Source of the DNA: Ascidiella aspersa
Lineage: Eukaryota
Assembly (NCBI GenBank): GCA_963924565.1
Contig: OZ004607.1
Coordinates: 10,416,001 to 10,480,000 of the forward strand
Length of the DNA stretch: 64,000 nucleotides
Direction: 5' to 3'
Shown piece after piece: positions 1,208 to 43,200 of the stretch. The position numbers and the translations under genes are program-made. How positions within the stretch are numbered: position 1 is the first letter of the stretch; each line of letters begins with the position of its first letter. Below the pieces are notes generated by a model, which ran no database searches, was not told the origin of the DNA, and saw nothing but the letters and a program-made list of their open reading frames with translations.

Positions 1208-4200
1208 CTAATTTGAAAAAATAGAAGATTAAGTTATTTTGCGGCACAAATTCGAAAAAAAATAATATAACTGACCAGAGCTCTACAAACTGACAGTTGC
1301 GATCTTGTGCGGCACAAATTCGGCGGTGTAATAAAATATAGCATACCAAGGTTTTAAACTGATGTTGTGCAGCTACTTTTACGTGTTGTTAGTATACTCC
1401 ATTAAAACCATTGAACAAAGTCTTGCGTCTGTATGTATGAAATGTTTCATTGCTATACCAGCCAACATAACGACGACTGGAAAAAAACTTTAAAACCAAA
1501 AATAAGAATAACTCCTACCCAAATTTATCGCGTCATACAACTTATTGTTTTAGAATTAATATCAAAGCCCATATACAAGCATAGGTAGCATATTTTGAAC
1601 GTTTTAAGTAATTCTTCATTCATTTTAAACATTAGATTTCAACTTCAAGTTAGAAACTAAATAAAGAATTGTTCGATTTGACATTCATTCAACGTTTAAC
1701 TATACAACCTCGATACAATATGCTCCAACAATTTTTAAGTTTAAAACAACGATTTTAAGTTTTTCTTTTTAAGTTTATTTTTTGTTATAAGCCCAACCGA
1801 ATATTTGACCTACATTTCCAGACAACGCATTATCGACATAACGAGCAACAACACCAAATAATATTACCTGTAGCACGTCTTGCTCAGCTTCTTTCTGTAG
1901 TGACGTCATGCGGAGTTTACGATATTGAAAAGCAATGACGTCATGTAACGTGTTGATGACGATGGCGATGACGGAGAAGTGGCGGAATGAGGGGAAAATA
2001 AAACAAAGTCGAAGCGGTAACATCGAGTGACATATGAAGCGCGAATGTAAGCCAAAAACCATGCCAAGATAGCCAAAAAAAGTGAAACATTGCAGAACAA
2101 TATATAAAAGTTTGTTACAAAAAACAGGAATTTAGCAACTTTTATTGTTTCGAAAAGAAGTGAATGGCTTGGCATTTTTTAATTGGAGTCAACATCCTTT
2201 GCTCAATACAGTGCTGGTGTACCGTGAATTAAATTCAGACACGGATCGAATATGTTGACGCCCGCTGCTGATTAAATTACCCAAACGTGGATGCAGAGGT
2301 TAATTAGATATTTTATAGCAGCGTTTTAAAACTGTTGATGGCAAAGCTCTTTCTGGCGGGCCCTACACTTTTGGCTAAGTTATTTAAATTAAACAAATCG
2401 AATATTTATTTAAAGTAAATTAAAACCGTTAAAGTGTTGAAACATAATCATTTTTTGTGATTTGTTTATATTCAACTTTCTTCATGCATTTCAGAAACAT
2501 TATTTATTAATATTAGTGTTAAGAAGAGGCGTTGCATCAAAACTGAATGACACCAGTTTTGTGGTAAATGCCTTGCCGTCGCCACATTCGCGTGCCCGAA
2601 AATAACAAAGCAAAGTAAAACTGGGCAAACATTAATAAAAAGGTTAGTCAAAGTGGGACGCAAGGTAAACCCAATTTGGTAAAAAAGTGTCGCAACGAAA
2701 ATGAGATGGATAGAGTTGGGGTGTGTACAAATAAGTTGAGAAGCACTGTTTTAAAGTGACCTCCAAGGCCGAAAAAACTTGTTTGTTTACAGTACTTTAC
2801 ATATTGCACCAATAGCAATAACTTCTCGAAACATTTTAAACCCTATACAAGACCGCAACGATTTTCTTGAGACGTAAACAAACCCAAAACGGGAACGAGT
2901 TTTAGACGATTGAAATATGCTTGAGGACGTTAATGTCGCTGCCTAAATTCGTTTTTAAAATACGTTTAGACGTGTTTCAACATAAGTTTATTACCGTTAC
3001 GATTTTAGACCTTCTGGAAACTTGAATAAGATCAAGGCGAGTTGAATTTAAGACGATTTGAAGATATATTAAAAACGTTTTGTGTTCAATGGGATATCAA
3101 TAATAGGAACAACTTCTTAAACCATTTTGAGACCTGTTTACATGTAAAGTCATCAAACTCATTCAAACAAGTGACGTCTCGTGCATTTCACAACGAGCGG
3201 TTCGTACATTCCAAGAGGAGCTAAGTGTCAACAACATGTTGAGGCAATTATATTAGTCGTCAATTACCTTTGGCGTTGCAGCCAGCTCTCGTCAGCTTGC
3301 GCCGCCGTGTCCTCACTCATGTTGTCGTCCATTCCATCCAGAGTTCCTGAAAAATATAGTTGAAAAGTCACTTTCTGTTGCCAACCTACAAGTCGAACTA
3401 AGTCTTTCAGGACCCGAAGCTTAAAAAAACTTTACTATTTACTTAAAATATATTTACATATTGTAATCATATTTGGAGTAAGTAAAAAACAATACCTGAA
3501 AAACTTAGTTGAAATATCAGTTTGCCAACCTACATGCAAAACAAGAACAAGGGATGCCCGATAAAATCGGATGTGAGCAGATACCCGATGCCAAGTGGCG
3601 GTATCGGTGATCGCCCGATACTAAGGTGATATCGGTGTCAATCCCATAAAATAGTAAACAATTATAAAATCAATTATTGAATTATCGAGAGTCGTAAAAC
3701 TATAATTCCATTAGATGTACTTTGGTGAACTTAATGTAGATTTAGCACTTTGGTAAACCCAAATCCCAATTTGTTAAGTAAAAATAGGCATGTTCGGACC
3801 GAACCAATAAGGGCGCATATGACGCTGCAAGTGCACCAGTAACTGGGTGAAAGGTGATGTAAGCTTGATTGATCTCGACATTCCGACATTTGAAACCCAC
3901 ATATCAGTAGCAGCGGATAGCGCGAAGTCAGTTGCGCCGAGGCAAACTCACGACCAGCGAAATACGAGGGCAAACTGGAACGGCCCCGGCCCCTGGGACA
4001 CCAGCTAATGGAGCACACTTCTATTCCAGGTCTTCTCTGACGTCTACGACTGATTGAATTGCGTCAATGGTCCGGTGGACTGATAGTTGGGTGTGTGTGT
4101 GGGGTGGGTGGATGACTGGATGTGACCCATTGCTGAGTTACCCGGCGGCGATAACCTATCTTTAAGTCGAAAAGCTCCCTTCCCTGATCTTGTATCAGTT

Positions 4201-7200: not shown

Positions 7201-10200
7201 AAATAAAGTCGACTCTCGAGTCTCAACTCGTTTCCCTAAATCTGTATTATATACTTTACTCCAATATGGTGGATATACAGCAATCAACTTCTCAGGCTCC
7301 TTGAACAACTCTATGCACGAAAGTAGGATGTATTTGTCAAACGTATATAGCAGCGGTACCCAAACTAAGCGCCGCGAGACTTTGTCAGCGGCGCCGTAAA
7401 CACTTTGGTGACCTTTGCTGAGATTTTAGAACATCATACCCCCGGATTTGTGCCGCTAACAAACCAAAATTTTACACATACCTTGCGTGCCAGCATTAGC
7501 AATCCGGCAAACACACTTTTAACGAAATATATAAATAAAATATTGATGTTAATTTTTGTTCATGGGCACACTATGCACGGATTTGTAATGTAACGTGATA
7601 ATGTATTACAAAGAATTTGAATAAACTCGCTGTAAGGTCCTTTGAATTTCAAAGTAGTCCGGTTAACACAAAGATGGTACGTTTTTTGTTCAATTTTAGT
7701 GCCGTTTACGTTTCATAGGCGTAATAAGCAATAAAGATTTTTTCAATTTCACACTCGTAATACCACCAATAGAAAAGAGCAAACTTCTTTGTCAATTCTT
7801 CATAAGTTTAAACTACTGTTTAGAAATTTTTAGCCGCAGACGTTTAAAAATTAAAGTCATCATGACGTCAAAGTTTATAAACTCTGTTGAAATGAAAGTA
7901 ATACGATCTGGGCAGGGATACCGCAATTTGTCTGAAGGAGAATGGTAAAACAAGACGCCGTCATGTTTTTCAAGTTTTCGTCGTTTTGCTCCTTCAAATA
8001 TCTAATTAATTTGTAAGTGTATCCTTCTGCTTGACAAGGGTGGCGAAAAACACTTCAAAACGTTAATTTGAATAGGAAATTTCACCTAAACTGACTGCTA
8101 ACGATTGTTTTAAAACAGTGCAACCGTTTTCGTCCGAGAATGACTTTGAAAAAGGTCAATTCTATTGTTGGCTGGGAAAGTTCGGTAGCTTAAAAAGTTT
8201 GCCGACTGAAATAAATTAGGAAATTCCCCAACAGAAAAAATAAATTGCTTGTTTGCTAAGCCCTTCCCTCCGCCATTACATAAGGTTTCTACCGCAGGTT
8301 TTAATATAAGAGCTTTCTTATCCACTATTTCAGTTATTCAGGAACATATTCATGAAAAATTTTAATCTTGTCATTACGGCCTAGTCAGCCAGCCTAATAA
8401 ACTTTCAAAACAGAGAAGCAAAAAATAATTTTGTTTCGCAGCACTTTTCGTCTGGTCGTCATTAATAAAAACGTTTTTACAACCTGTTTAGATATAATAA
8501 AGGAAAAACTTGTCTGTAGTAGAAAAGCAATATTTTGTTTTTTTAACCTTGGCGATAGGTTCCCATAATTAACGACTTTAAATATTGATTTGTAAGGGGA
8601 GGCGTTCATGGACCGAATGCCAAATCCTAAACCAATCGAAATGAAAACATATTTACTTACCCGCTCAAGACTCCAAGAATAAGGTTCATGACGAAAAATG
8701 AGCCAACAATGATTAAAGAAACGAAGTAGATCCATGGAAGCAGACTTCCCATCGCGTCGTTCGTCTGCAAAACATTGGTTGTAAAGCTTATTATATACTG
8801 AACGATGACATCAGTCTTGGTGTTTCCAAATTTTAGAGTTAGTCCTGGTAAGTACTTCGTAGATCTTTAAGGATGTCCAATAATTTCCGATCGTAGCCGA
8901 TACTCCATGCCAAGTGGTAGTATCGGTACTCGTTCGATTCTACGGTGGTGTCTGTGCCGATCTGATACTAAATTTATTTGTGCACTACGACTGCGTTTTG
9001 CGTCCATTTAAGTTTTACTTAAAAAGGAAAATTTCTAAAAAAATATTACATTAAAAATTCGAGTATAAAAAGTGATTCAAAGATTTAATTCTTAGTTAGC
9101 TTTATTTTGAATAGTGTCTATAAGCAATATTTCACAAAAATAATATAGTCTTTCAAAGTGGAAAAACGCTTAGATCTCAAACCGTGGCTGAAATTTTTTA
9201 ATTAACGATCCTAAACCGTCCTAATATCGGACGAGAACCAATAGTATCACTTGGCATAAGGCATCGTTTCCGTTCCAAAATAACCAGACATCCCTACTCT
9301 CCGTTCCCTTAGCTTTAAACTTGCCCAAATAAATTTTCGCCAAACTTCAAAAAATGCCAAAGAGGCAAAACTCACGTAGTAAAGCACGTCAGTCCAGCCC
9401 TCCATGGTGATGCACTGGAAAACGGTGATTACGGAAAAGTAAAACGTGTCGAAGTTAATGATGCCGTACGAGGGGCCTTCCCAACCGCCCCGACAGGTAG
9501 TGCCGACTGGACAGTGGCGCCCTGCGTCCGGGATAGGGGCACACGGCGCCGGGTCGTCGAAGGCCAGGACGTAGTCTGTAAGGTGATGACAAAAACGGTT
9601 TATATTTGAGTTTTTTGATCGTATTTTGATTAACCAACTATATTTTTTGTGCTAAAATGCCCTTTGTTATTTGTAGGGTAAAATGCTGAAAAGTTTAGAG
9701 AATGGCCCGCACGCCTGAATCAACAAATACGGGGAGAATTATTTCGAATAAGTTGGAAGATCGACCGATCAAGCTGACAGCTTGACTGAAATAGGAGGGG
9801 TTTTTGAATTAGAAGCGGGAATTTTGCCGTCGTGGCGTAACGTCATTCGCGTTTTATTCTCTCCCTCACCTTTTTTTCTTTTTGATTCTCTTTCGGTAAA
9901 AATATTTAGCATGTATTTTGTTCTGAGTACATAATAATGTTTTTGTCGACATATTTACTGCTAATACGAAGACAATTATTAGAATACCGTATCCGGATAA
10001 AATTACCAAAACAGGTTAAATGATGATATGCCGATATAAAGGCAAAGTAGCCACAGTAAACAAAGTAAATCTTTCCAGTTAAAAAAATTTGTAAATTGTA
10101 GAACAGTAAAATCGTTACTATAGTTTGTTTAAGTTAAGCCTTCATAAATGTTTTAACTTTGACCTGATGAAGCACGGTTGTGCGAAAGCTTGTCGAGAAT

Positions 10201-13200
10201 CAAATACAATTTGTCTTTATACAGTGCCACCTGATTTCTCTATTTAGAATTAGGACAAATACGGCCATATACAAAGATAAATGTTTTAAGTAACACAGGG
10301 ATCACTGTAATCACAACATTTCGTTCACATTTTTCCCTAGTCTAAAAGGGTGCAAATTTTATTTCACTAATTTATAGAGTACCTTATTTAAGTGGTGAAC
10401 TCATTGTATTTGTATTGTCAATTCCATACAATTTCTTAATAGAAAATGAGATTCAATAATTAGCCTACTTCAATCACACAAAAAAAAAACTTAGCCCCGA
10501 CGACAAAGTCACCCAGCAACGTTATATGAAAACAATGCACTTACCTATTTGGTTATCTGCGGTGGTCTCGTTCTTGTAGCAAGTCTTGTGAAGCTTTCCC
10601 TTAAAGAGCTCGAGTCCGATAACGGCGTATATGATGATGACGAACATTACGAGCAGGGCGATATGCAAAAGTGGCAGCATGGCGCGGATAATGGCGTTCA
10701 GCACCACTTGAAGACCTAAAAACAAGTAGAACCTGCGTCAAATCGGGTAGCAAAATAAAAAACCTAAAAACTAAGTATACTTCAAAACAACTTGGAGGCC
10801 TTTCAATTACCAAAAGAACTTTAAAAAATGAGCAACAGACAAACTATCTACCAAAATTATGGCGTTCAGCATTAAAAGCCAGTTAAAACATTTGTTCCTT
10901 ATGGGGTCTAAAGAAATAACAGATGATCAAAAACTGATGAATCATCTGATATTAATATTATGTCTCACAGCATAACTTGCAGGCCTGCTATGAAAAGGAG
11001 GAACAATCTAGGAAAGCCTCTGTATAAAAGTATAAGAAGAGAAACAACAACAACCGAACCATTTTAATAATTTAATCCATTGGTTTCCGACCAAAGTCAT
11101 GGCGTTTATGCCAGTGTTTCCCATTGCAGGCCAAGGTCGTGTATAGTAGTGACCTTGGCCATGTTTACACGAAGAATGCTTTTACAGAGCCAAAGAGCCA
11201 AAGAACTAAAGTTCTATTTGTATAGGTAAAATAACTCTACGTTCTTCTCTCAGATTTTCAAGGTACACAACCGTCTTTATCGCAAGGCCTTTTCAAATCT
11301 AGCACTAAAATAAGTTGCAGGCGCATAATTTCCATTACCTAATTGAAGTCAGCATTCTTATAATTTCTTGTGTTATATCTTGTTGTTAAAATATTAGTTT
11401 TTAAATATACATTTCAGAAATAAATTCGATACCACTTCAATAGGCCGGTATCAATAAAGATGGGTTAACAAAAAAAATAAGCCTCGGGATTGTTAAGGCG
11501 CCTTTAGTTACGGCGATAACAAAGGTGCGACAAGTAATTGTTGGAAGTAATTTTTCACATTAAAAATAGAGTGTCAACAAAACATAAAATGGCGCCAAAG
11601 CGTTTTGATGTGCCAAACGAAATCTAAGAGACACTTTCGGCGCCTTAACTTATAAATACGACAGTAACCAGGGCTTTCGTTTAACTCGATTGGAGAGATC
11701 ACTTGAAGGGATCCCAAGGGAAATCGCCTGCAACCGAACAGAGGCATTAGCAAAGGGCGTTTTCGCCACAGCAAGGGGCTACAATGCCTTGTCCACTCAA
11801 TCTCCCAACGGGCCATCGCGGAACAGCTCCATTCACTTGCATTACTTTTGCATACAACATGCTGCAAGGCAGTATCGGTTAGGTTTTGGTCTTAATTGGA
11901 TTACAATAATTACGGCGTGACAAAGTCTAGAGTCGTTGTTCAAACTTGATTCGTTGTTCGTTGTTCAAACTTGATTCGTTGTTCGTTGTTCAAACTTGAT
12001 TCGACCCAATGAGTAGATCGACATTATCTTGATTAAGAATTTTCGATACGAACTTGAATCGTGTTCAATTAATGTGACTGAGAAGTAAATAAAAGCATCA
12101 CTTGAAAAGGTGGGATGCAATTGTTATCATTCGGAGTATCTATAGTCGGATAATTAGTGATCCATAGTTGTATTTACAATTAGTTGAGTTGATCTTTGGA
12201 CACAATGACATCACACTTGGGCCCGAGTTTTGAGAGTAGAATAACTCAAAAGTTGCTTTGCGACAAGCTTTTCCAAAAAAATTGGAAAGTTATTGTTTGA
12301 TTTGGAATATTGCGTGCGGTCAAAGATTTGGTAAAAATGTTTCTAAATTGTTTTTTAGATACAGTATGGTTGCAGTGTTAAAAAGGATGGTTAGAGTTAG
12401 ACCTCAATATAGGGCAGTTTTAATTTTGAATGAAGGAAAATGCCGATTACTGGATATGACTTGTTTGGACTAATGTTTATAACACGTGTTGTCTCGGACT
12501 CCAATTATATATAAATTAGTAGGCTATATTTGTAAGACCTACAGGTCTGCAGCGAACCTTGTATCTTTACTATATTGATTATTAGATCCTTTATTCTACA
12601 AGGTCAACACCATAAAACGTTAACGGTCCTAATATGTTTGCAAAAAGGATCGCGTGTCGAGAAAAAACATTCGGGTTGTTTACACCCGGTCTGCTGTCTT
12701 ATCGTTGTCCTCACGTTATGCGGCTCACAAATGTGTGTTCGTCAAACACTTACCGGAACACAGCAGTAAACATGACGACGTTTCATAAGGGAAAAAAATC
12801 GGGGTGTTGATCGATATCACAGGAAACGTGGTGTTGTTTTATATTTAAATTGTGGGTTGGCTAAGATACAACGCCATGGATTGAAACATAACGACCACCT
12901 ATGTTGCATAGAAGCATAAATTTGGCGTTGTATGAAAACGAATTTGTCAAGTAATAAATGGCATTTTCAATATGCCGAGTCGTTTAAACCAGGAACCTAA
13001 CTCAATTAAAAATGTTCCCGACGCTGTCAGCGATAAAGATAACAAAGATAACATTTATGTTGTCGTCGGTATGCATTTGTTAACCTGTTGAACAACTTTG
13101 GGCCAAAAATGTGATTTGAGTACTATAGGTACATGTAAAAACGATAAAAGCTAAGCCGACCTTACAAATGCGAGGCGAGACTGAATTTGGAAACCACTGG

Positions 13201-16200
13201 TTTAAATTAAAAAAAATAAAAGTGAACATGGTTATTCATTAATTTGTTTGAGAGAGCTAAAAAAATTTTGTTGATTGTTTTAGGCAATATTTTAAATATT
13301 TAACTAGCTGTGACTTTCTGCCGAAAAATAACTAAAAAAATCATAACTAATTTTAATATTTATCCACACAAAGTCCGCGGACCTTAGGTTTGCCAGTCTT
13401 GGTGTTAAGCATTAGAGATGTAAAGTGCAATGAAGGCAGCTGAGATTGCTTTGACCTCTGAACCCAAGCATACGTCACTGGCAAGCTAAAGTATCCGCTG
13501 TCGGCGCGAACGACTGACCTCGGGCGCGTGTTGCACATCAGAGAGTCGGAAAATAGGTGCTGTGTCAGCGGGACAGAAATAGAAGCTTACTAGGCCTTTA
13601 CCACTGTCCGGCCTTGCCCCTGCCCTGATGGGATTTATTTTGAAACCTTGCCTTTGAAGTTGGGTGCTTTGTTTAGAAGTAATATCAAAGCTTTAAGTAT
13701 TGGCTTGGCCTTCTTTGCACGCTCGGAAATCGTTTGTTGTGTTATATGGGTATAGGCTAAATTGGCCTATAAGATGACTTTTTATAGAATAAAATTCATT
13801 TAGCTTTGTTTTAAATGGAGTGCAAAACAATTAGATTTCAAATTATTCATGTTTTTCAATAGAATGTAAATGAACTTTGAAATTATTGAAGTTTTTCAAT
13901 ACAATATAAATAGAATTTTAAATTCCTAATAGTTTTAAAGGAATTTGTTTAACCGTCACTCAAGTACGGTCAATACCTGATCCACTACAACATTTTTGGG
14001 GGTATACAGCAGGATTGGACGTTGAGTAAAATTAATATTTTTTAAAAATGACAAAGTTTAGGATTGTTGTTTACACTTTGGTTGTAAACTTAAAGCAAAA
14101 ATAATATTTTATCAAAGCTATGTTTTAACATTTTGAAACGAGTAATAATTACGGTTATATATTTCTCACTAAACCCTTCAAAACGTTGCAATTTTAAGGG
14201 TTGAAAATTGGCGGACCATACGGCGTTTGAAAAAAACAGAAAAGCTTGAAGTAAATTGTTTCACAATTTCTCTATAGCGCTTGAAGGTTTTCTTTTACTT
14301 CCGCTAATTTATTATTTGATTTTGGTGCTGGCACAGTATAGGTACCTAATTAGATGTCAGGAAATTGCAAGGTTGCAGAAACGCAACATTATAAAAAAAC
14401 AATACTGCGTGTATTTTGTAGTACACGCATGTTTCAAGCGCCTGATTTTTGGGTAAAATATTATAGTGTTTGGAGTAATTATTATGTCATTCGAGTGATT
14501 TCCGAATTTCATGCAAGGTTAAAAGTCTTTTAGAAGGGATTCTAATCTGGCCTCCTTCAAACAGTGTTAAAAACAGCATTTAAAAGGCAAATTAACGAAG
14601 CACGGGTTGCCTGTCTGAATTGCTTCCTGGGCCCAGAGACTCGTAAAAAATATCATTATGAGTTGTATGACTATAACATTATTAGTAGTAGGAGGCTAGG
14701 AGTGTGTGTACTTACTGGGAACGCCAGACACCAGACGCAGAGGCCGGAGCACCCTGAAGGCCCTGAGAGCCCGCACTTTGTCGGTACTTCCCATGTCAGC
14801 AAGGTCGAAAACGATACTGAAGAGCCTGCAAAGAAAAACACAATGTTCCAGTTGATTGTATTTCAATTATGTTCAATTATGCAATGACTATAACACCGAT
14901 CTCTGAAAATTGTCATTGCAAAATGAGCAACATATAAAAGTTGGATGAACAAGATTTTCAATAAGAAGACAATTAGTATAAGATGTTAAATTAAATGGAC
15001 AAGGAGCGCAAGTACCTGAAGGATGCACTTGATATTTTGTTTAGATAGCGATACCCGATATTTTGAACAAAAAGTATCGCCATCCGATCCTATACCAAAT
15101 GACGTCATTGCTATGCCCCAATAAGCAAAACAGTTTATGGACAATAGGTTTAGTTACCTATAGATGTTAACCTATTACAAATTCCGACAAATTCACCCTT
15201 TTAATGTTGAAATAACTGTCTTTGGGCGCAAATTATAGATAAAACTCCTATGTTAATTTGGTATCATATCGGCACGGATATCACCCTAGTATCGGACGAG
15301 TACCGATACCAACATTTGACATCTTCCCTGTTGTACCTTATACAGACACACTGTACACTAGGGATGTCCGATAATATCGGATCGGTGCCGATACTCGATG
15401 CAAAGTGGTATAGTATCGGTACTCATCCGATACTAGAACGGTATCGGTGCCGATCCGATATCAAAGTAATACACGAATTTCAGTCAAGCTTTGCTTTTTA
15501 ACACATCGATTAAAATGTGGAAGGCAACCTTATTAGGTAAGCAACTGGAGATACTAAACTTCTTGAACGTTTTAATTATGTCTAATTTCAATGTCTTAAG
15601 CATAGTAAAGACGTAGTTTGGTATCGTATTGGATCGCGATAATGTGTGTCAGAAACATCGGTATACTTTTGCATAGAGTCTGCTACAAGTTTATGCTCAC
15701 AAAATCAAGTCGTTTTGGCAGGTTAAAAGTTCTACGATAAATGGCAGGCTCGAAGGAAATTCGTTCAGACATAAAAAAAAGTTCACAAGGATTTGCTAGG
15801 CTCTGACGCAACGAATGACGTCCAAGAAGCAGTCGTAAGATTAATACAGCGCGCCGTTATAACCACCAAGGTGCCCACATCCGATGTGCAAGATCATGTG
15901 CCACGAAGCAACATCACAGACGTCTACGCCTAATAGGTTAAGCCGTCTGATCTAATTTTATTAAGACGCGGAACGCTTTTAATGAGTTCTAACTTGGAAA
16001 ACAGAACATTTTTCAGGTTTTTGAGTAGATAAATTCCCCGCAAAAAAGCCTAAAGTTGTTTCCATGCTTTTGGCCTTGTTATATTCGGTAATCTATATGC
16101 AAAAATAAACTCAATCATAATTCTGGCCATTTGTTTGACTCCCGACTTTGAAATTTCCCGCAACCAATAAGCTAAAAAAAAGGCCCCATACAATTTTTCG

Positions 16201-19200
16201 CCCGCCTTTATTACGAAGTCTTACGTTTTTTTTTTAATTTTTCATCTTTGGTTTCTGTGTGCTCATGTTCAGAACTTGTGTAACCATTTTACACTCCATG
16301 TAAAAGTTTCCGCATGCTCTGTCCTTACCTTTGCTAATTCTACCCCTATTACATTCTCCCCTAGCTTTCCAACATAAAACACCCGAAGGTTCTTGCTCTT
16401 CGCTACGAAGAGATGAAAAAGGCACGTAAATCACATAACTTAAGTTTACTTATTTTTTAATGACGTGTTATTTTTGCTAATGTTATTTCACAGACGACGC
16501 CGAAAACGGGGCCGGTGTGTATGAAACGATACTTAAGTGTTTTAACAAGAGTTAAAAGATATCCAAATCACCAGTAGCTTACTCACCCAACAACGACAAT
16601 GATAAAATCGAGCAGGTTCCAGCCGTTGCGTAGATAGGCGTTAGGGTGAAGCACCAGGCCGAATGCCACGATCTTCATAATCGACTCGATCGTGAATATT
16701 CCAAGAAAAACAATCTCCACTTTTTCCTGAACAAAAAAAGTATTTTTTTAAGTTTTTTGTTCGATCTTGAGCTAGACGTTACCTATTTGTTTGTTGCGAT
16801 GCCCAAACCCGACATTTTGGGATAAATTTTCCGCCATTCAAACCGATACAATTATGTTGAAATGTGCAAACGTAATTTTTACAGGTTATTCAGCCAAAAA
16901 TATACTTTGCCGCTAGGAAGTTTATTTTTCGTTGGTTTGTGGCGATAATTTTGTTGTATATATTTCTAACTAGAAAACTTTGGGTCGTAATAACTTAAAG
17001 GGTCATATTTTAGGTCTTGCAAATCGCCATAACGCGATTTTGGACGTGATTATTACTATACGTATACTGTTGTGATTATTTCGTACTGTCCGTGTCACAA
17101 TAGACTAAATACGATGTTACAGTTAAGTTGATTTCGTATGACTAAATTACCACATTGATGAAGTATCGCATTGGCTCTAGCACATAATACCATATAGCAG
17201 GGTTTCTTAACCAGGGTTGCTCGAACCCCCAACGGGCGCGAGAACTGATGCAATGCTGAATCAGATACAGAAAATGTATTAATGTTATTTCTCTCTTTGC
17301 TCAATAAAATGTAAAACTAACTCACATTTTAGTATTGAGTTATTGTGTTATCAGTTACTTGTATAAAAACAAAATTACAATGATTTTGTTATTTAAGAAA
17401 TTATAGAAGGGGGTGCAAGAACTGGTTTGTGATTTGAAAGGAGTGCAGCATGGACAAAAAGGTTTAGAACCACTGCCCTATAGTATAGTACGACTAGAAG
17501 TTATAAGGCCTGGATTAGACGAATAGCTTTATTGCGATATTTTTATACATCGCCAACCAAATATGGGTCGAGATAAAATATAAATCAACAACTGACAGCT
17601 TAAATACCGAGTTGCATGGTTTTAAATGCAGATATTTTATTCGTGTTGAAACTAAGTTATTGTCAATATTGTCCTCTCAGATTAATGTGGTTTAAGATCT
17701 ATAGGCATGCTTAAATAATAACAAAGTGTTTCGTGTACTCCGTTCCCTTTTGGTGAAAAAAAAAGGAACTAAAAAAGTTACTGGTTGTTTTTGTACATTG
17801 TTGCGTCCCTTTATTAAATAAAAAAAAAACTGTTAGAAGCTTTAATACAGTGCCAATCTCTTCGGGCCGACACATATTTTTTCACTAAACATTGTAAAGC
17901 GAACGTTTCATGCAAAAAAGCAGCTGCCGAGAACCTAACTAGCCGCAAAGTGCCGAGTTACAAGCGTGTAGGTGAGATAACGCTCGATGCGGAACGAGTC
18001 GTGCTAGATTCTCGGCATCAGCAAACGGCAGTGGAAAGGTCAGGTCAGGTTCAAGCACTTACCAGAATCTCGTTGGTGGAGTTCGAGTCCTCGCCCGGGA
18101 ATGGCACGTAAATGGCGAGGGCTACACAGTTGGCGAAAATGGTCAGAAGGATAAGCACGTCGAAGGGCCTGGCGAAAAGTAAAAAGTGAGGTTGGAAAAA
18201 CGTTTGTCAACCTTTCGCAATTATTGGCCTGAGGGTATTTTCTGCCAAAAATTTAGAAGAAAAAATGAATGTACATGGTGAAAACGGAGAAAATTCACAG
18301 GGTTATGTAACGTCTTCGAATCAATAAACCTTGTTGGATAAATAATAATCAAAAGTAAAAAAACAGTTAAAAGATTTTCGCTTGACAGGTGGTTATTTCG
18401 CAGTACTGAAACTACCAGTGTATGCCAAAGCTTGAAGTTGAATAACCGTTTATCAACCTTTCGCAATTTTTGGCCTGAGGATATTTTCTGCAAACATTTT
18501 AGCGAAAAAATGAATGTACGCATGGTCAACACCGAGAAAATTCATAGGGTTATGTAATGTCTACTAATTAATAAACTATTTTGGATATATATTAATCAAA
18601 AGTAAACAAAAGTTAAAAGATTTTCGCTTGACAGGTGGTTATTTCGCAGTACTGAAACCACCTGTACAATTATGCAATGACTGTATCACCGACCTCGGAA
18701 AATTTGCCTTGGAAAAGAGACAAAATATGAAAGTTGGATGAAAGAGATTTAAAGAAAACAATTAATATAAGATTTTCAATAAAATGGATAATGAGCGCAA
18801 AGCAAAATGAAAAATGTCAAAGTTTTGGACCTGGCTGTGGTCAGTGCTTACTATTTTATACAGATGTCACAAAATTAAGCGCCTGTGACAAGTTAGCGCA
18901 CATTACTATAACCGTGGTGATTTCAACAGTATATAAAACCTTTTAAAGACCGTTTACAAACATAGTTGTAGCTTTTTCAACTATGTGACATTACACTTTG
19001 TCTTAACTTTGCAACGTAACATTTTGACGTAACTTTGTGATGTTATGTCATCTCTAAAAAAATGTCATACCACCCCTGTCTAAACGAAATTCCTAGATCC
19101 GCGCCTGGTTACAAGATATAAAAGACCCACCCTGTAATGTTAGAAAAGCACTAGAATCTGTAAAGTTACTTGATAAATGTAACCTGTGAAACAGGAGAAC

Positions 19201-34200: not shown

Positions 34201-37200
34201 ATGCATTGGTTGCTGCATATTTTGTTGAAAAACTAGGATCGCTTCTGACTGAGTTCTTTAATCAAACAGCTGACCGACATTCTCTACAGAAGGCAGGATA
34301 CGGAGTTGAAAGCTTAACACGCGAACGACAAGAACGTGAGCATACCACATCTGCGATGCTGTGCGCGAAGACATCTTTACGACCCAGTGGCACGGGAGTC
34401 TACAGGTTGTGAAGCAGCGAGAGTTTACGACGCGTGTCTGGCACAGAATCCGAAACGCGTCTTTCACACCTGGCTTTTTTTCGACAAACACCAATACAGA
34501 AACCGCAGAATTCCCGTTTCACCCTTTACACGAAATTTACTCCACAACATAGCTGCCGTTTTAACTACGAATGCATATTGTTTTACTGCCTTTGTAAACG
34601 TAATCAGTGCAAAACCTTATATTGTTAGTCCACAGTTTCTCAATGGGGTCTTTCCCGCTAGGGGGCAACCAGCATAAAACTATTACCCTTCAGTCATGGT
34701 TAACTCTGTGGCTTTCATTATGGCTTTACAGCCTCTATTATGACGTTCGGTGGCATATTGTTTTAACTTATACCACAGGGGTCACAAAAGTTGTTTGAGA
34801 GCAAGTGTTATGAGGTGACCACTCATAAAAGCTTAAAACCGCCATTATTATAAAGGCTGTCTTCCTTTGTCGTCCCGTGCCCCCTCCCCCACCCATGTAA
34901 AGCGCCCCAGGGGGTACTAAACCCCGGTTGAAAGTCCATAACATTCTGCCCCAGACCGAACGCGCTCAGAAGGATAAAATCTAAACCGCATTATAGCTAG
35001 TGCAAAGTGCGACACGGCTAAGAGAGGGTCTAACACCTGTCTACAACTCCCAACGGCATAAAGCTCTCATTAATAATAGAGGCCCGATAAATCAGCGGCA
35101 CAGTCGGCGCCTTAACTCACTTTGCCATCTGGATGTAGGAATTTACGGCCTATCAGTGGAGTTTATGCGGCTTGGCGCTTGTTCAAAACCAGGTGTTGAA
35201 AGATATGGATTTTGAACTTTGTGGTTCTCTTCTTATAAAACTCACTTGCTTAACGTATTTACTTTTATTTAAACAACATGCTATTTTTGTAAACAAATTT
35301 GTTTATACTTAATGTTTTCATAAGGTTAATAATAATTGTACAATCGTACCTTACGAAGCTTAAACAAGTTTTTAACAAACTACAGAAATCATAAATAGAT
35401 TTTACACAGTAAATGATTAATCGTTTAATGGCTTTTTTAGCTAGTTTCTATTGAATTTTTAAATGCGAATTTTCAAATCGCCCAAATGCGAATTTTGAGT
35501 CACTGTTTAAGTTTGAGTAACTGTATATCCGGTATAATTAATGGCTTCAAATGACAGCTGACAGCTAGACATTGAGATAACTAAGCTGGATAAGATAAAA
35601 TAAGTTCGAGACAGCGTCATCCTAGTTGGAAAGTAAGACAGTGAATGATGAGTAGGCTATAACTATTGTTTTCAAATACGACAAGTCATAGCGCCTTGCT
35701 ACATGCTCATTAGATAATTAAATATTTCAGAAACGTTATTGCTAAAGTAAGTAAGGTACAAGGTAAAATTAATAGAGGGTGTATCAATTTAGTTCAACTG
35801 TTCGCCTGTTAGGACTACGAATAACTTAGATACACTATGCACGGATCTGTAATGTAACTTGGTAATGAATCTTAAAGCCAAAAAGGTCGCGCAAATCATA
35901 TAAGTGAGGTTTGGATATATATTTCAGTCACATTAACTGATGATGATACAATTGTTTGTGGAAACTTCTTAAGATGGTGTCGATTTACTCGACCTTTTTG
36001 GCTTTGAGATTCATTATTAAGTTGCGCTCAAACTAGTTTCAAACTCCCAAGGAACTCATGCAGAATAGAATGAAGACAGGCACGTAGACAACGCTAAATG
36101 CAAACCGGTTCGCTGACACTTTTAAAACTTTGCACTCAAGTTTTCGTCCACCAAAATTATAAATCTAAAATTCTGAAAGAAATTTTGCCAGGCGTTAAAC
36201 TTTCCTGGGTATTTTGAAGATAGCTGTAAACACATGGCTGTAATATGACACACAGGATTGATTATGACATATAAAGACATAAAAAATTCTTAACCCTTAC
36301 TTAACAGACTTAAAAATATATTTTTACTGATTTCAGACTTAAAGTAACTGCTGAGCCGAAAACAACTTTCTAGTATTTCTCAAACGAGTAAGTTGGAATC
36401 TTCACAAAAGTGGCCAACGAAGCCTATAGGCAACTTGGGTTAAAAATGATGACCTTGTCAAAGACTATCGTGACATTGTATTGTTCTGTGCGACTGACGT
36501 TGAAGGGAGACATATGGTGATAGCGAGAAAAGTTAAAATAACATTGCGAATAAGACGTGGCAATAAAAGAGGGCCTTGAATGTTTGTCTCATGCCAAAAC
36601 GCCCGAAACGTCTTTGTTTGCTAGACAACAGTTTACAGATTGAATTTTAAACAAGACAGATTCAGTCGCGCTAAAATGGACAATTTTACGATTGTATTAA
36701 TATTGCGTGTTTAACAATACAGTGTATTACCATCAATAAAATTCTTATGTGGCTGTGGGTAAGCAATGTTACAAATGGGTGTTTTCGCCAGCCTGCCCTA
36801 TTCAGAATTATTAAACAAAATATAATGTGTCGCAAACTACTATAGTAGACTTAAGAATCGAGCAAAACTCCTTACACGGTATAAATTGCTCGTACAGTGT
36901 ATTGTGTATTGTACACCATGTTAGACCTCAAATTTTTGTCAGCAGGTAACGGTTGACTTTTTAGGGGGAAAAACTGATAAATAATGATCCCAACCTATCC
37001 CATTACCAGCTTTACACAACACTGGCGTACGACCCAGGGATGACCAGGCCATGCAACCCCCCAAATAATTTTATTTTTAAAAACAAATTCAGGATCATCC
37101 CCCAGTTCTCCCATAGTTCAGCGATTACAACAGGTTTTTTATCAATCAAAATACAAAAAAAAAACGAAGACACTTGTGAATAGATTCACGAAAAAAAACG

Positions 37201-40200: not shown

Positions 40201-43200
40201 CATGGCAACATAGATTTTTTATCACAATTATACAAATATTAAGTGTCAGTTCACAAAAAATCAACAAGTTTTGGTTCACAAAAATCTAAAATTTGAGTGA
40301 ACAAAATTAAGATTTGGTTTACAAAAGCTAAGTTGTGGTAAACAAAATATAGAGTTTTGGCTCAAAAAATGACTTGCATATATAATATGTAATTAATAAA
40401 CATTATAATATACAATTAAATCATGTTCCATTTCTTGTGGCAGTTGTCTCGCGAGTCATCAACGACGGTTATCAAGGTGCTTTAGTTTCTTACCTATCTC
40501 TATAGTCTGCTTAATTTCTTCCCGGTAAAACTTGTAAAATGTGTCCTGCTCTTTTAGGTTATGCAACAATCAGCAGTTCGTGCTTATCGGAAACTAATAA
40601 TTCATTCTCAGAGGTCCTTGTTACAAAATAACGAAACCCCAGGGACTAGATAATAATCTCAAACTGGCAGCCCGATAAGCTAGCATTTTGAACCATTATC
40701 CTGGAGGGTGTGACGTCATCAAAACCGGCAGGGGGTCAACAAATACGGATCCAATACGCCCTTTTAAAAAAACGAGATGCCCGCTATTTTGCAAACCCTA
40801 ACACTGAGTGGTTCTTAACACTTAGTTAATCAATCCAAATCGATACTTAACAATTTAAACAGGCGATATCTTGACGATAATATTAGTCTACAAATGATAA
40901 TATTAAGGCTAAAAAACAAAAACTAGAATTCAGTCATGATTAAACTTTTCATGCTGATTTCAATGCAAGTTATACGGCAGTGTTGTTTATTATTTAAGCT
41001 GTGTCAGGTAATATCTCAATAATTAAAAAAAAGTCTAATTAAAAACAAGTTCTTCTTAAGACTAACCACATTACACTACAATAAAAGCGGAATACTCTAG
41101 GAAAGCTAGCAAATTAGTTGAGACACCATTAAAAGATCTTAAAAGATGTATATGTAGCCTATATTTCGCCAACAAAGGCATCGTCAGTATATGCAAAAAA
41201 ACAAACGCAACAGTATTAGAACAAGTCAGATACATTAAAATAAGTGTGTCTGACCTAAATTGCTAGCTTTGTTAGAGTATTCTGCTGTTACTGATGAGTT
41301 AAGGTCGTCATTTATCTTGCAAGGGTCGAGGTGATTTCTCTTATCACATATTCAGTGCAACACACTAAAATAGTTAAGAACCACTGGTGTAACCCAAGAA
41401 AACGAACAACCCACGGGTATTCTGCTTCGACATCTGTCATGACTCTGTGCTAACTAATGGCTTGTAATGCGCGGAAAGGCCTATAAGGTGGCCGTTGCAG
41501 GTCTCCCGTCTGCTTTATCTCCAGACATCTCGTTCTTTCGTTAATCGGCTGCTGCATGTCCCAACGCGTCATACACTCGTAGATTTCGCCGGCGTGGATG
41601 CACGCGTTCGTCATAACCGTCGTCGGCTGACTGAAAACTGCATTCCTGATTGGTCTACTTTGACCTGCATAGTTCGGGCTGGCTAAAGTGGGTAACCTGT
41701 ATAGTTTGAAATAACTTGAGTGAAACACATTGAAATAACTTGAGTGCCAGTCAAGACATTTGAAAAATAAGTTAAGTACAATTTGATTAAAAGTACAACT
41801 CCCACATCAAGTCATCACTTGTCAGGCCATTTTTAGAAACAAGTCAACTTTAAGTCATATCATTTCCATATTTTCCCTTGGCTAATATCTGCATTCCTAC
41901 GACTCGTAGCTGATACGACAGGGCACTTTTTTCATATTTATAAAAGCTGCACTCTGTATGGCTTGATTTCGTAATTGCTCGTTATGACAGAAATTGATTA
42001 AGAAACCTGAGTATTTTGTAAACACCGCATAACCTTTAAAAAATGGCCTGGCTGGTATGAAAACGATTTCAGTTTCAAGGGTTTTAAATAGTTGTTCTGA
42101 ACTAGATAGAAGACAACCTCTAGTTAAAAGTCTTGCTCTTCCCTTTAACTGAAAGTCGCACTACTTATGTATAATTTTTTTCGCGACTATAAATGTTACA
42201 AACGACTCTATGACCTTTCTTCCTATAAGACTTCTCAATCTATCATATACCTCAGACTAATTTAGCATATTTTTGCTGAAATGTACACAAACTATGACCT
42301 CTTTTTCAAGCCTATTATGGCTGATTAGTCCGGAAACATTATTTTATCACCCCTCGCAAAAAGCAGGTTTTCTAGGCACGGTAAAACGAAGCGTTTTGAT
42401 CTCGATTGCCAACCATCCAAAACCTTTCACGTCCTTGCTTTAACAGTCAACCATTAACCGTTTCGAAAACGACCTGGAAAAGCGTTAGTATCGCATTGCG
42501 TTCGGCGCAGCGGATTGTTCGACGACGGCTATTTCGTTGTGCTACTATAACGCAAAAGCATTTCGCACGGTGAGCGAAAGCAACATATGGCGGGACGGCG
42601 ATTGATTTTCTGACCGTCCCGGTCTTTGTTGATCGTATTTTTGGCAGGATTATGCCAGTTTACGGCGACTGGCTGGCAAAAATACAACGCGACGATCTCA
42701 AAACCTAATTTTAATGCCCTATCGGGGCATATTCATATTGGATCGCTTTACAGCAGTCGTCTCGGCTTATCAAGCTTTGGTGCAAAAATGACTAAAAAGC
42801 TTTTAAACATTCAGAGGCGTTGGTGAAAAATGCCGTATTGATCCGACTTGCGCCACGTTCTAATTTGACCAGCGGCCCCCAAGGTATTTCGTGCTTATTA
42901 TATTGCAATTGAATTCGGCAATGCGCTGCTGCAGTGCATCAAAGAGGGCAGATAACGATTTTAATTTGGTATACTTGAAGCATTGTGATGCAGTAGTATT
43001 GGAGGTGGGTTAAGGCCACGATCTACTTGGTAAAAAAAAATAGGGGTCGTTAAGTAACGTCGGCCGGGAGCTTGCAATCAGAGGCTGGTGATAAGAAGCC
43101 GCGATTATTGCGAGAATTATATTGCTAAACACTATTGGCGTTTTTTAAGGAAACTCTGTTTTCTCTGTACCGTGTTAAATGTTTGTCTCCCATTAGTTAG

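Follow-up and report, generated by a model that had tools for sequence, protein, structure and literature searches.

The hammerhead motif at positions 10158-10197 of the window, the whole stretch of 64,000 nucleotides of Ascidiella aspersa DNA that was analysed, belongs to a 123-bp insertion bordered by a target-site duplication of 13 bp. This insertion is very probably a 3' end, truncated on its 5' side, of a Penelope-like retrotransposon that is young and dispersed; in a calcium channel intron it is likely no more than a passive passenger. The insertion (10156-10278, + strand) was delimited by its identity to other copies and comprises a part of the pLTR followed by the tail. It is flanked by an AT-rich left copy (10144-10156) and a right copy (10277-10289) of the duplicated target, with one base of the left and two bases of the right limit common to insertion and duplication. 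Minimal hammerheads in such Penelope repeats have already been published and the locus is ordinary mobile DNA. From the results described below we infer how the insertion arose, that it is inactive at this locus and what a cluster of 5' junctions in its family may mean.

The insertion lies within an intron (9576-10544, - strand) of a Cav1-type calcium channel alpha-1 gene, which has GT/AG splice signals and adjoining exons matching Ion_trans. The upstream exon (10545-10715, - strand, approximate limits) encodes the S5 region of domain I. Among PDB entries, the host gene matches Cav1 channels best (115.6 bits for alpha-1C versus 89.3 for the N-type channel). The motif on the + strand is thus antisense to a Cav1-like gene on the - strand, as the earlier note had it. 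Five coding exons were found upstream, exon 1 not being located among them, so the designation as intron 6 holds only by the numbering of human CACNA1C. Introns of the channel gene contain other repeats as well, among them a 246-bp direct repeat and a GATAC-rich inverted-repeat element (18187-18665, 3552-3658, 8871-8977 and 15242-15480).

The motif has the layout of a minimal type I hammerhead, and both boxes, the stems and the palindrome read letter for letter as the earlier note had described them. Stem I consists of 6 bp with two G-U pairs (10158-10163 with 10192-10197) and is followed by the core box CUGAUGA (10164-10170) with an extra A (10171) between positions 9 and 10.1. Stem II, GCAC-GGUU-GUGC (10172-10183), has 4 bp, a G10.1-C11.1 closing pair (G10172-C10183) and the loop GGUU. 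The GAAA box (10184-10187) overlaps with AGCU (10187-10190), a remnant of helix III that is palindromic at positions 15.2-16.2 and forms no stable helix, and U17 (10191) precedes the predicted cut between 10191 and 10192. All core elements of minimal type I hammerheads (CUGANGA, GAAA and UH) are therefore present; U is the weakest allowed base at position 17. A hammerhead descriptor pattern matched twice in the window, compared with a mean of 0.01 in 100 shuffles. The fold of 10158-10197 (-10.2 kcal/mol, z -1.51) was equalled by 12 of 200 shuffles and is by itself weak evidence for a hammerhead, and the hammerhead was absent from the centroid fold of a 132-nt context. The Rfam search that the earlier note had proposed came back blank for hammerheads, both at the gathering score and at E<=10. 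Stem II and its GGUU loop are also self-complementary via G-U pairs, which predicts a competing dimer (cofold -27.0 kcal/mol).

Numerous copies of the insertion were detected in the same genome. It is identical to two of them at 123/123 positions (L019 and L009) and to a third (L030) at 122/123, and a search of the genome gave 53 matches at 95-100% identity (40 scored candidates). Exact patterns for a 37-bp stretch from core to tail, for the core plus stem II and for an anchor 3' of the motif matched 57, 541 and 495 times, respectively, with no match for any reversed control; these counts refer to arms, not to insertions. DNA read depth was about 4800 on the motif versus about 5 on the flanks. 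A figure of about 2000 copies for the family was rejected, as it counts seed candidates only. Within the window, an older copy of the same family with a largely deleted hammerhead (917-1025, + strand; BLAST E 1.6e-18, 71% identity with gaps) is found in another intron of the channel gene, where it ends about 10 bases from a splice donor. No second family motif was found nearby on the same strand; the copy studied here is single and not tandem. An empty-site allele was not seen among the 15 joints listed (113 more joints exist), and a metagenome scan with a relaxed motif pattern gave no match.

To describe variation within the family, we used an anchored set of 72 arms at 70 loci, chosen by the anchor 3' of the motif (30 loci from the top of the list of anchor matches and 40 of the 70 places that follow), of which 52 span the whole motif. 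The identical 40-mer is kept in 17 of these 52 copies. Differences amounted to 6.3% and 3.8% in the core boxes, 7.7-7.9% in the stems and 8.2% in the loop, and to 8.5% upstream and 12.2% downstream of the motif, where shared subfamily variants sit. The rates are similar on core, stems and loop, as in neutral decay. None of the 12 pairs showed a two-sided change in the 52 copies, and the stem covariation that the earlier note had asked for was thus not seen within the family; such a lack of covariation is expected, since these are copies of a young element that were dead on arrival. This lack, the blank Rfam result and the weak z-score of the fold are what could be put forward for a chance arrangement or a non-functional look-alike, an explanation to which we assign a negligible probability. 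It is opposed by the expectation of 0.01 descriptor matches per window, by the position of the motif in the pLTR, which is the published one, and by 25 other motifs whose stem II sequences differ. Among these, a Watson-Crick palindrome is present in 18 of 25 (control mean 6.1, maximum 15), at least 3 pairs of stem II in 14 (control mean 5.5, maximum 13) and at least 3 pairs of stem I in 9 (control mean 1.7, maximum 7). These features were outside the search pattern; the 25 loci are not all independent, as several belong together and two are variants of the family studied here. A PLE protein match within 1.5 kb was found for none of them.

Minimal hammerheads (min-HHR) have been described in pLTRs of metazoan Penelope-like elements (Cervera and De la Pena 2014, PMC4209133). 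As far as that description is accessible, the motif shares with them the type I layout with intact boxes, the extra nucleotide between 9 and 10.1, the G10.1-C11.1 pair and the palindromic positions 15.2-16.2, and the family likewise consists mostly of single dispersed motifs, with opposite-strand pairs 100-700 bp apart. In contrast to the motifs presented there, helix II has 4 bp rather than the 7-8 bp of the Schistosoma families, position 17 is a U, the family is young with low sequence variation, and its host belongs to none of the groups named in the accessible part of that paper.

The assignment to a Penelope-like element follows from longer sister copies. As the window holds no coding remnant, the link to a reverse transcriptase (RT) rests on these sisters, which extend upstream of the insertion into a 3' UTR and a coding frame on the same strand as the motif. 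Two of them (L030 and L019) carry a GIY-YIG domain, and the longest (L054:1401-3582; G000:C1:15311400-15313582) combines RVT_1 (E 3e-10) and GIY-YIG (E 2.3e-7) in a single frame of 487 aa, which shares the strand of the motif, ends before reaching it and is preceded by a further frame of 154 aa. These three sisters place the motif in the terminal repeat of a PLE, and the linkage to GIY-YIG/RT reading frames for which the earlier note had suggested a search is thus present. For the protein of the longest sister, 1140 homologues were found at E<=1e-30, with 50-51% identity for the best and many turtle sequences among them; the copy covers residues 247-829 of an 832-aa homologue, with a frame break. 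Turtle sequences come closer to its protein (about 50%) than those of Styela clava among the matches listed (36-38%), which is insufficient for a claim of horizontal transfer. An alignment that includes this protein revealed a CX4CxxC linker between RT and endonuclease (EN) as well as conserved C, C, H and H columns in the endonuclease. By these sequence features 10156-10278 can be classified as a 5'-truncated Penelope-like element of the Neptune/Nematis type, which may resemble Neptune more than Nematis.

The architecture of the copies agrees with this assignment. An inverted arm is present in 37 of the 57 young copies. With positions counted from 10192 as +1, direct arms end at +82 to +88 and inverted arms mostly at +46 to +61, so that the tail measures about 35 bp; in the window it corresponds to 10243-10278 (+ strand), a segment kept on direct arms and mostly missing from the inverted arms of sister copies. 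A duplication of 7-14 bp was detected in 12 of the 57 young copies, with a search that can handle simple copies only. In length the copies vary continuously from less than 60 bp to about 2 kb, reaching into the ORF. With RT and GIY-YIG in sister copies, inverted arms, a tail and a target-site duplication, the description as a Penelope pLTR remnant is supported. A full-length or direct-tandem master was not found in the assembly among the best candidates scored, neither by DNA search nor by the N-terminal RT frame, and a search for a tail followed by ATG gave 8 matches, none with an N-terminal coding match. Sequencing reads also contain a joint from 10247 to 10155, indicating that the family also occurs at some locus as a direct tandem unit of 128 bp, with 35 letters in between; this unit was seen in DNA reads, in one contig set and in one RNA read.

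A CX2-5CxxC linker between RT and EN together with CCHH in the endonuclease is given as characteristic of Neptune and Nematis in the accessible text of Craig et al. 2021 (PMC8557442). Like the C-terminal EN+ elements treated there, the family has the order RT, linker and GIY-YIG with C-C-H-H, heavy 5' truncation, an inverted 5' copy, a tail within 30-40 bp and a hammerhead in the terminal repeat. It differs from these elements, as far as they are described there, in that its assembly yielded no direct-tandem or full-length copy and that the junctions read lie in AT-rich targets rather than in microsatellites.

If cut RNA had served as template, the 5' junctions of the copies would be expected to gather at +1. 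No excess was found at the cut site, neither in the young set (4 of 51 at risk versus 2.1 expected) nor in the anchored set (2 of 63 at risk versus 4.2 expected). Junctions cluster instead at -44 to -32, just 5' of stem I, with 23 of 54 at risk versus 5.2 expected, a contrast whose significance is optimistic because the interval was picked after seeing the data and the 23 include the window copy and a duplicated pair (L232, L233). A second count gave 9 of 36 versus 3.1 expected, and uniform breaks simulated with the same aligner put 12% of junctions into the interval. The 5' junction of the window copy itself belongs to this cluster. As its cause we rejected both a spliced upstream exon common to the copies and a subfamily with another upstream sequence, since 29 arms of this kind are preceded by inverted arms or by unique targets. 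What is left is either a fixed 5' end of the RNA or microhomology at the first AT-rich patch beyond the motif. The cluster would fit the copying of an uncut RNA whose 5' end is a preferred one, with microhomology as the rival; the potential for microhomology peaks at -36 to -41, but equally at -45 to -56, -64 to -66 and -81 to -84, where fewer junctions fall. The family has TCATTT at -43 to -38, which we take to be initiator-like. In D. virilis the start is reported to lie further upstream, beyond an intron (PMC2377424), and the formation of 5' junctions by microhomology has been described (PMC3846280), in both cases according to the accessible parts of these papers. No description of such a junction cluster was found in the literature by title and abstract opening, and supplements may bear on it; the pile-up upstream of stem I is one modest new observation of this analysis.

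The insertion could accordingly be pictured as a sequence of steps, in which the GIY-YIG endonuclease of the element would have cut AT-rich DNA and its RT would have begun at the tail to copy the RNA of the element, coming to a stop some 35 nt 5' of the scissile bond. Such a stop implies that the RNA would have been uncut when it was copied. A comparable mode is known from PAc, a Poseidon element of Anolis, with internal RT initiation and a protein-assisted hammerhead (Frangieh et al. 2024, PMC11167929); in the accessible account, the main template is uncut RNA and no reads end at the cut site. The family resembles PAc, as described there, in two 3' end points set apart by the tail, in an ATT-like 3' junction (T is the next base in 28 of 38 full-tail copies here) and in that copies or reads ending at the cut site were not seen. 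PAc belongs to another clade, Poseidon, which has no linker zinc finger, and the present family is described here from its sequences and reads.

Tandem hammerheads do exist elsewhere in the genome. Following read joints that step back by 46 bases, we found 7 loci (L141-L147, e.g. G000:C2:20503600-20513500) with arrays in which 2-5 hammerhead units of 45-46 bp follow one another. They are located inside the arms of a roughly 10-kb non-coding, foldback-like repeat; these inverted arms measure 2.3-3.5 kb or more and share 93-99% identity, and the repeat has a central tandem repeat of about 190 bp. The arrays go back to a single insertion, which has a duplication and an inverted tail of its own and sits within the long arms of this carrier, and the core of their first unit is usually damaged. 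A 2026 preprint, of which part was accessible, derives non-LTR retrozymes, i.e. tandem type I hammerhead repeats, from pLTRs (10.64898/2026.07.22.740005). By its measure of two or more consecutive units the arrays are formally retrozymes, yet they spread with their carrier, and the window contains a single unit only. The tandem copies for which the earlier note had suggested a search thus occur as 46-bp arrays at 7 other loci, but not at the window locus. The window copy shares with the retrozymes of the preprint a type I motif derived from a pLTR, and differs from them as a monomer with a target-site duplication that is collinear with a coding element.

One may therefore ask whether the unit of about 125 bp is a non-autonomous, retrozyme- or SINE-like monomer, which spreads as its own short RNA with the Penelope protein acting in trans. 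The junction cluster at -44 to -32, the 45-46 bp arrays at 7 loci and the derivation of retrozymes from pLTRs in the preprint (accessible part of 10.64898/2026.07.22.740005) speak for such a monomer. The continuum of copy lengths into the ORF does not, nor do the ends of the unit, which lie off the cut site, unlike what a circular retrozyme monomer needs; moreover, the window copy is not tandem and the arrays trace back to one insertion in another repeat. We consider this explanation improbable, and the naming of the copy as a retrozyme remnant is not supported, as it is single and its longer sisters continue upstream into the 3' UTR and ORF of a transposon. Truncation of a Penelope-like element remains the preferred reading. 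A further and tentative possibility, which we would rather doubt than accept, is that the family junctions record the timing of the ribozyme. Copies of about 125 bp, including that of the window, would then be run-off products: RT initiating internally, at the tail, would have copied up to a fixed 5' end of the RNA, located about 40 nt before the scissile bond, while the hammerhead stayed uncut throughout transposition. Together with the 46-bp arrays, such units would represent a retrozyme being born from a Penelope pLTR.

RNA evidence for the locus came from one fragmented library of undefined strandedness, of which 6 in 100 was read, with reads mapped on the intron interior only. In this fraction, RNA depth was 0 on both unique flanks of the insertion. 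The element itself was covered by 336 RNA reads, none lying wholly on it, which derive from other copies, and per letter read its frequency in RNA is lower than in DNA by a factor of about 13. Read starts or ends did not pile up at the scissile bond in this fragmented library, from which rare cleavage could escape, and the RNA 5' ends at about 10192 that the earlier note had proposed to look for did not appear. In a natural cis tandem, the calculated energy of the helix-III dimer was -15.2 kcal/mol, compared with -18.2 kcal/mol for two monomers and -25.3 kcal/mol for swapped stem II strands, values that ignore the tertiary core. Even there, the helix-III dimer is predicted not to be the favoured fold. 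This agrees with the absence of cleavage in a minimal hammerhead monomer and the low activity of dimers reported in the accessible text of PMC4209133. The motif of the parent element would be predicted to cleave only as a dimer via the AGCU palindrome or with the help of the element protein. Being single, antisense to the pre-mRNA and without detected transcription, the motif in the window likely never cuts.

The suggestion that it could process an antisense transcript found no support, given an RNA depth of 0 on the flanks, no piles of ends and no partner motif nearby. Recruitment by the host, in which the window copy would cleave an antisense RNA regulating the calcium channel gene, seems highly unlikely to us. 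The intact motif and the presence of the insertion junctions in contigs of two other runs would fit with it, but the motif is intact because it is young (123/123 identical to other copies). The lack of RNA on the flanks, the lack of a second family motif nearby on the same strand and the disfavoured helix-III dimer (-15.2 versus -25.3 kcal/mol even in a natural cis tandem) also argue against recruitment. As a passenger, the window copy likely does nothing for the channel gene.

The family as a whole offers a test bed for the role of hammerheads in Penelope-like elements, which is an open question. It is young, has hundreds of mapped junctions and shows an excess of ends upstream of stem I but not at the cut site, and its natural 46-bp cis-tandem arrays allow a dimer cleavage assay without engineered spacers. 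Further hammerhead-like sequences are found in the window. The second descriptor match (41160-41187, - strand) has a 3-bp stem II, the palindrome AUAU and no clear stem I, and sits between 53-bp inverted arms (41079-41131 and 41241-41293). Two segments at 35825-36021 and 12010-12081 belong to a different repeat family, which has minimal hammerheads and inverted arms; both are decayed and show 72-91% identity to loci elsewhere (L188, L191, L196, L197, L199 and L201).
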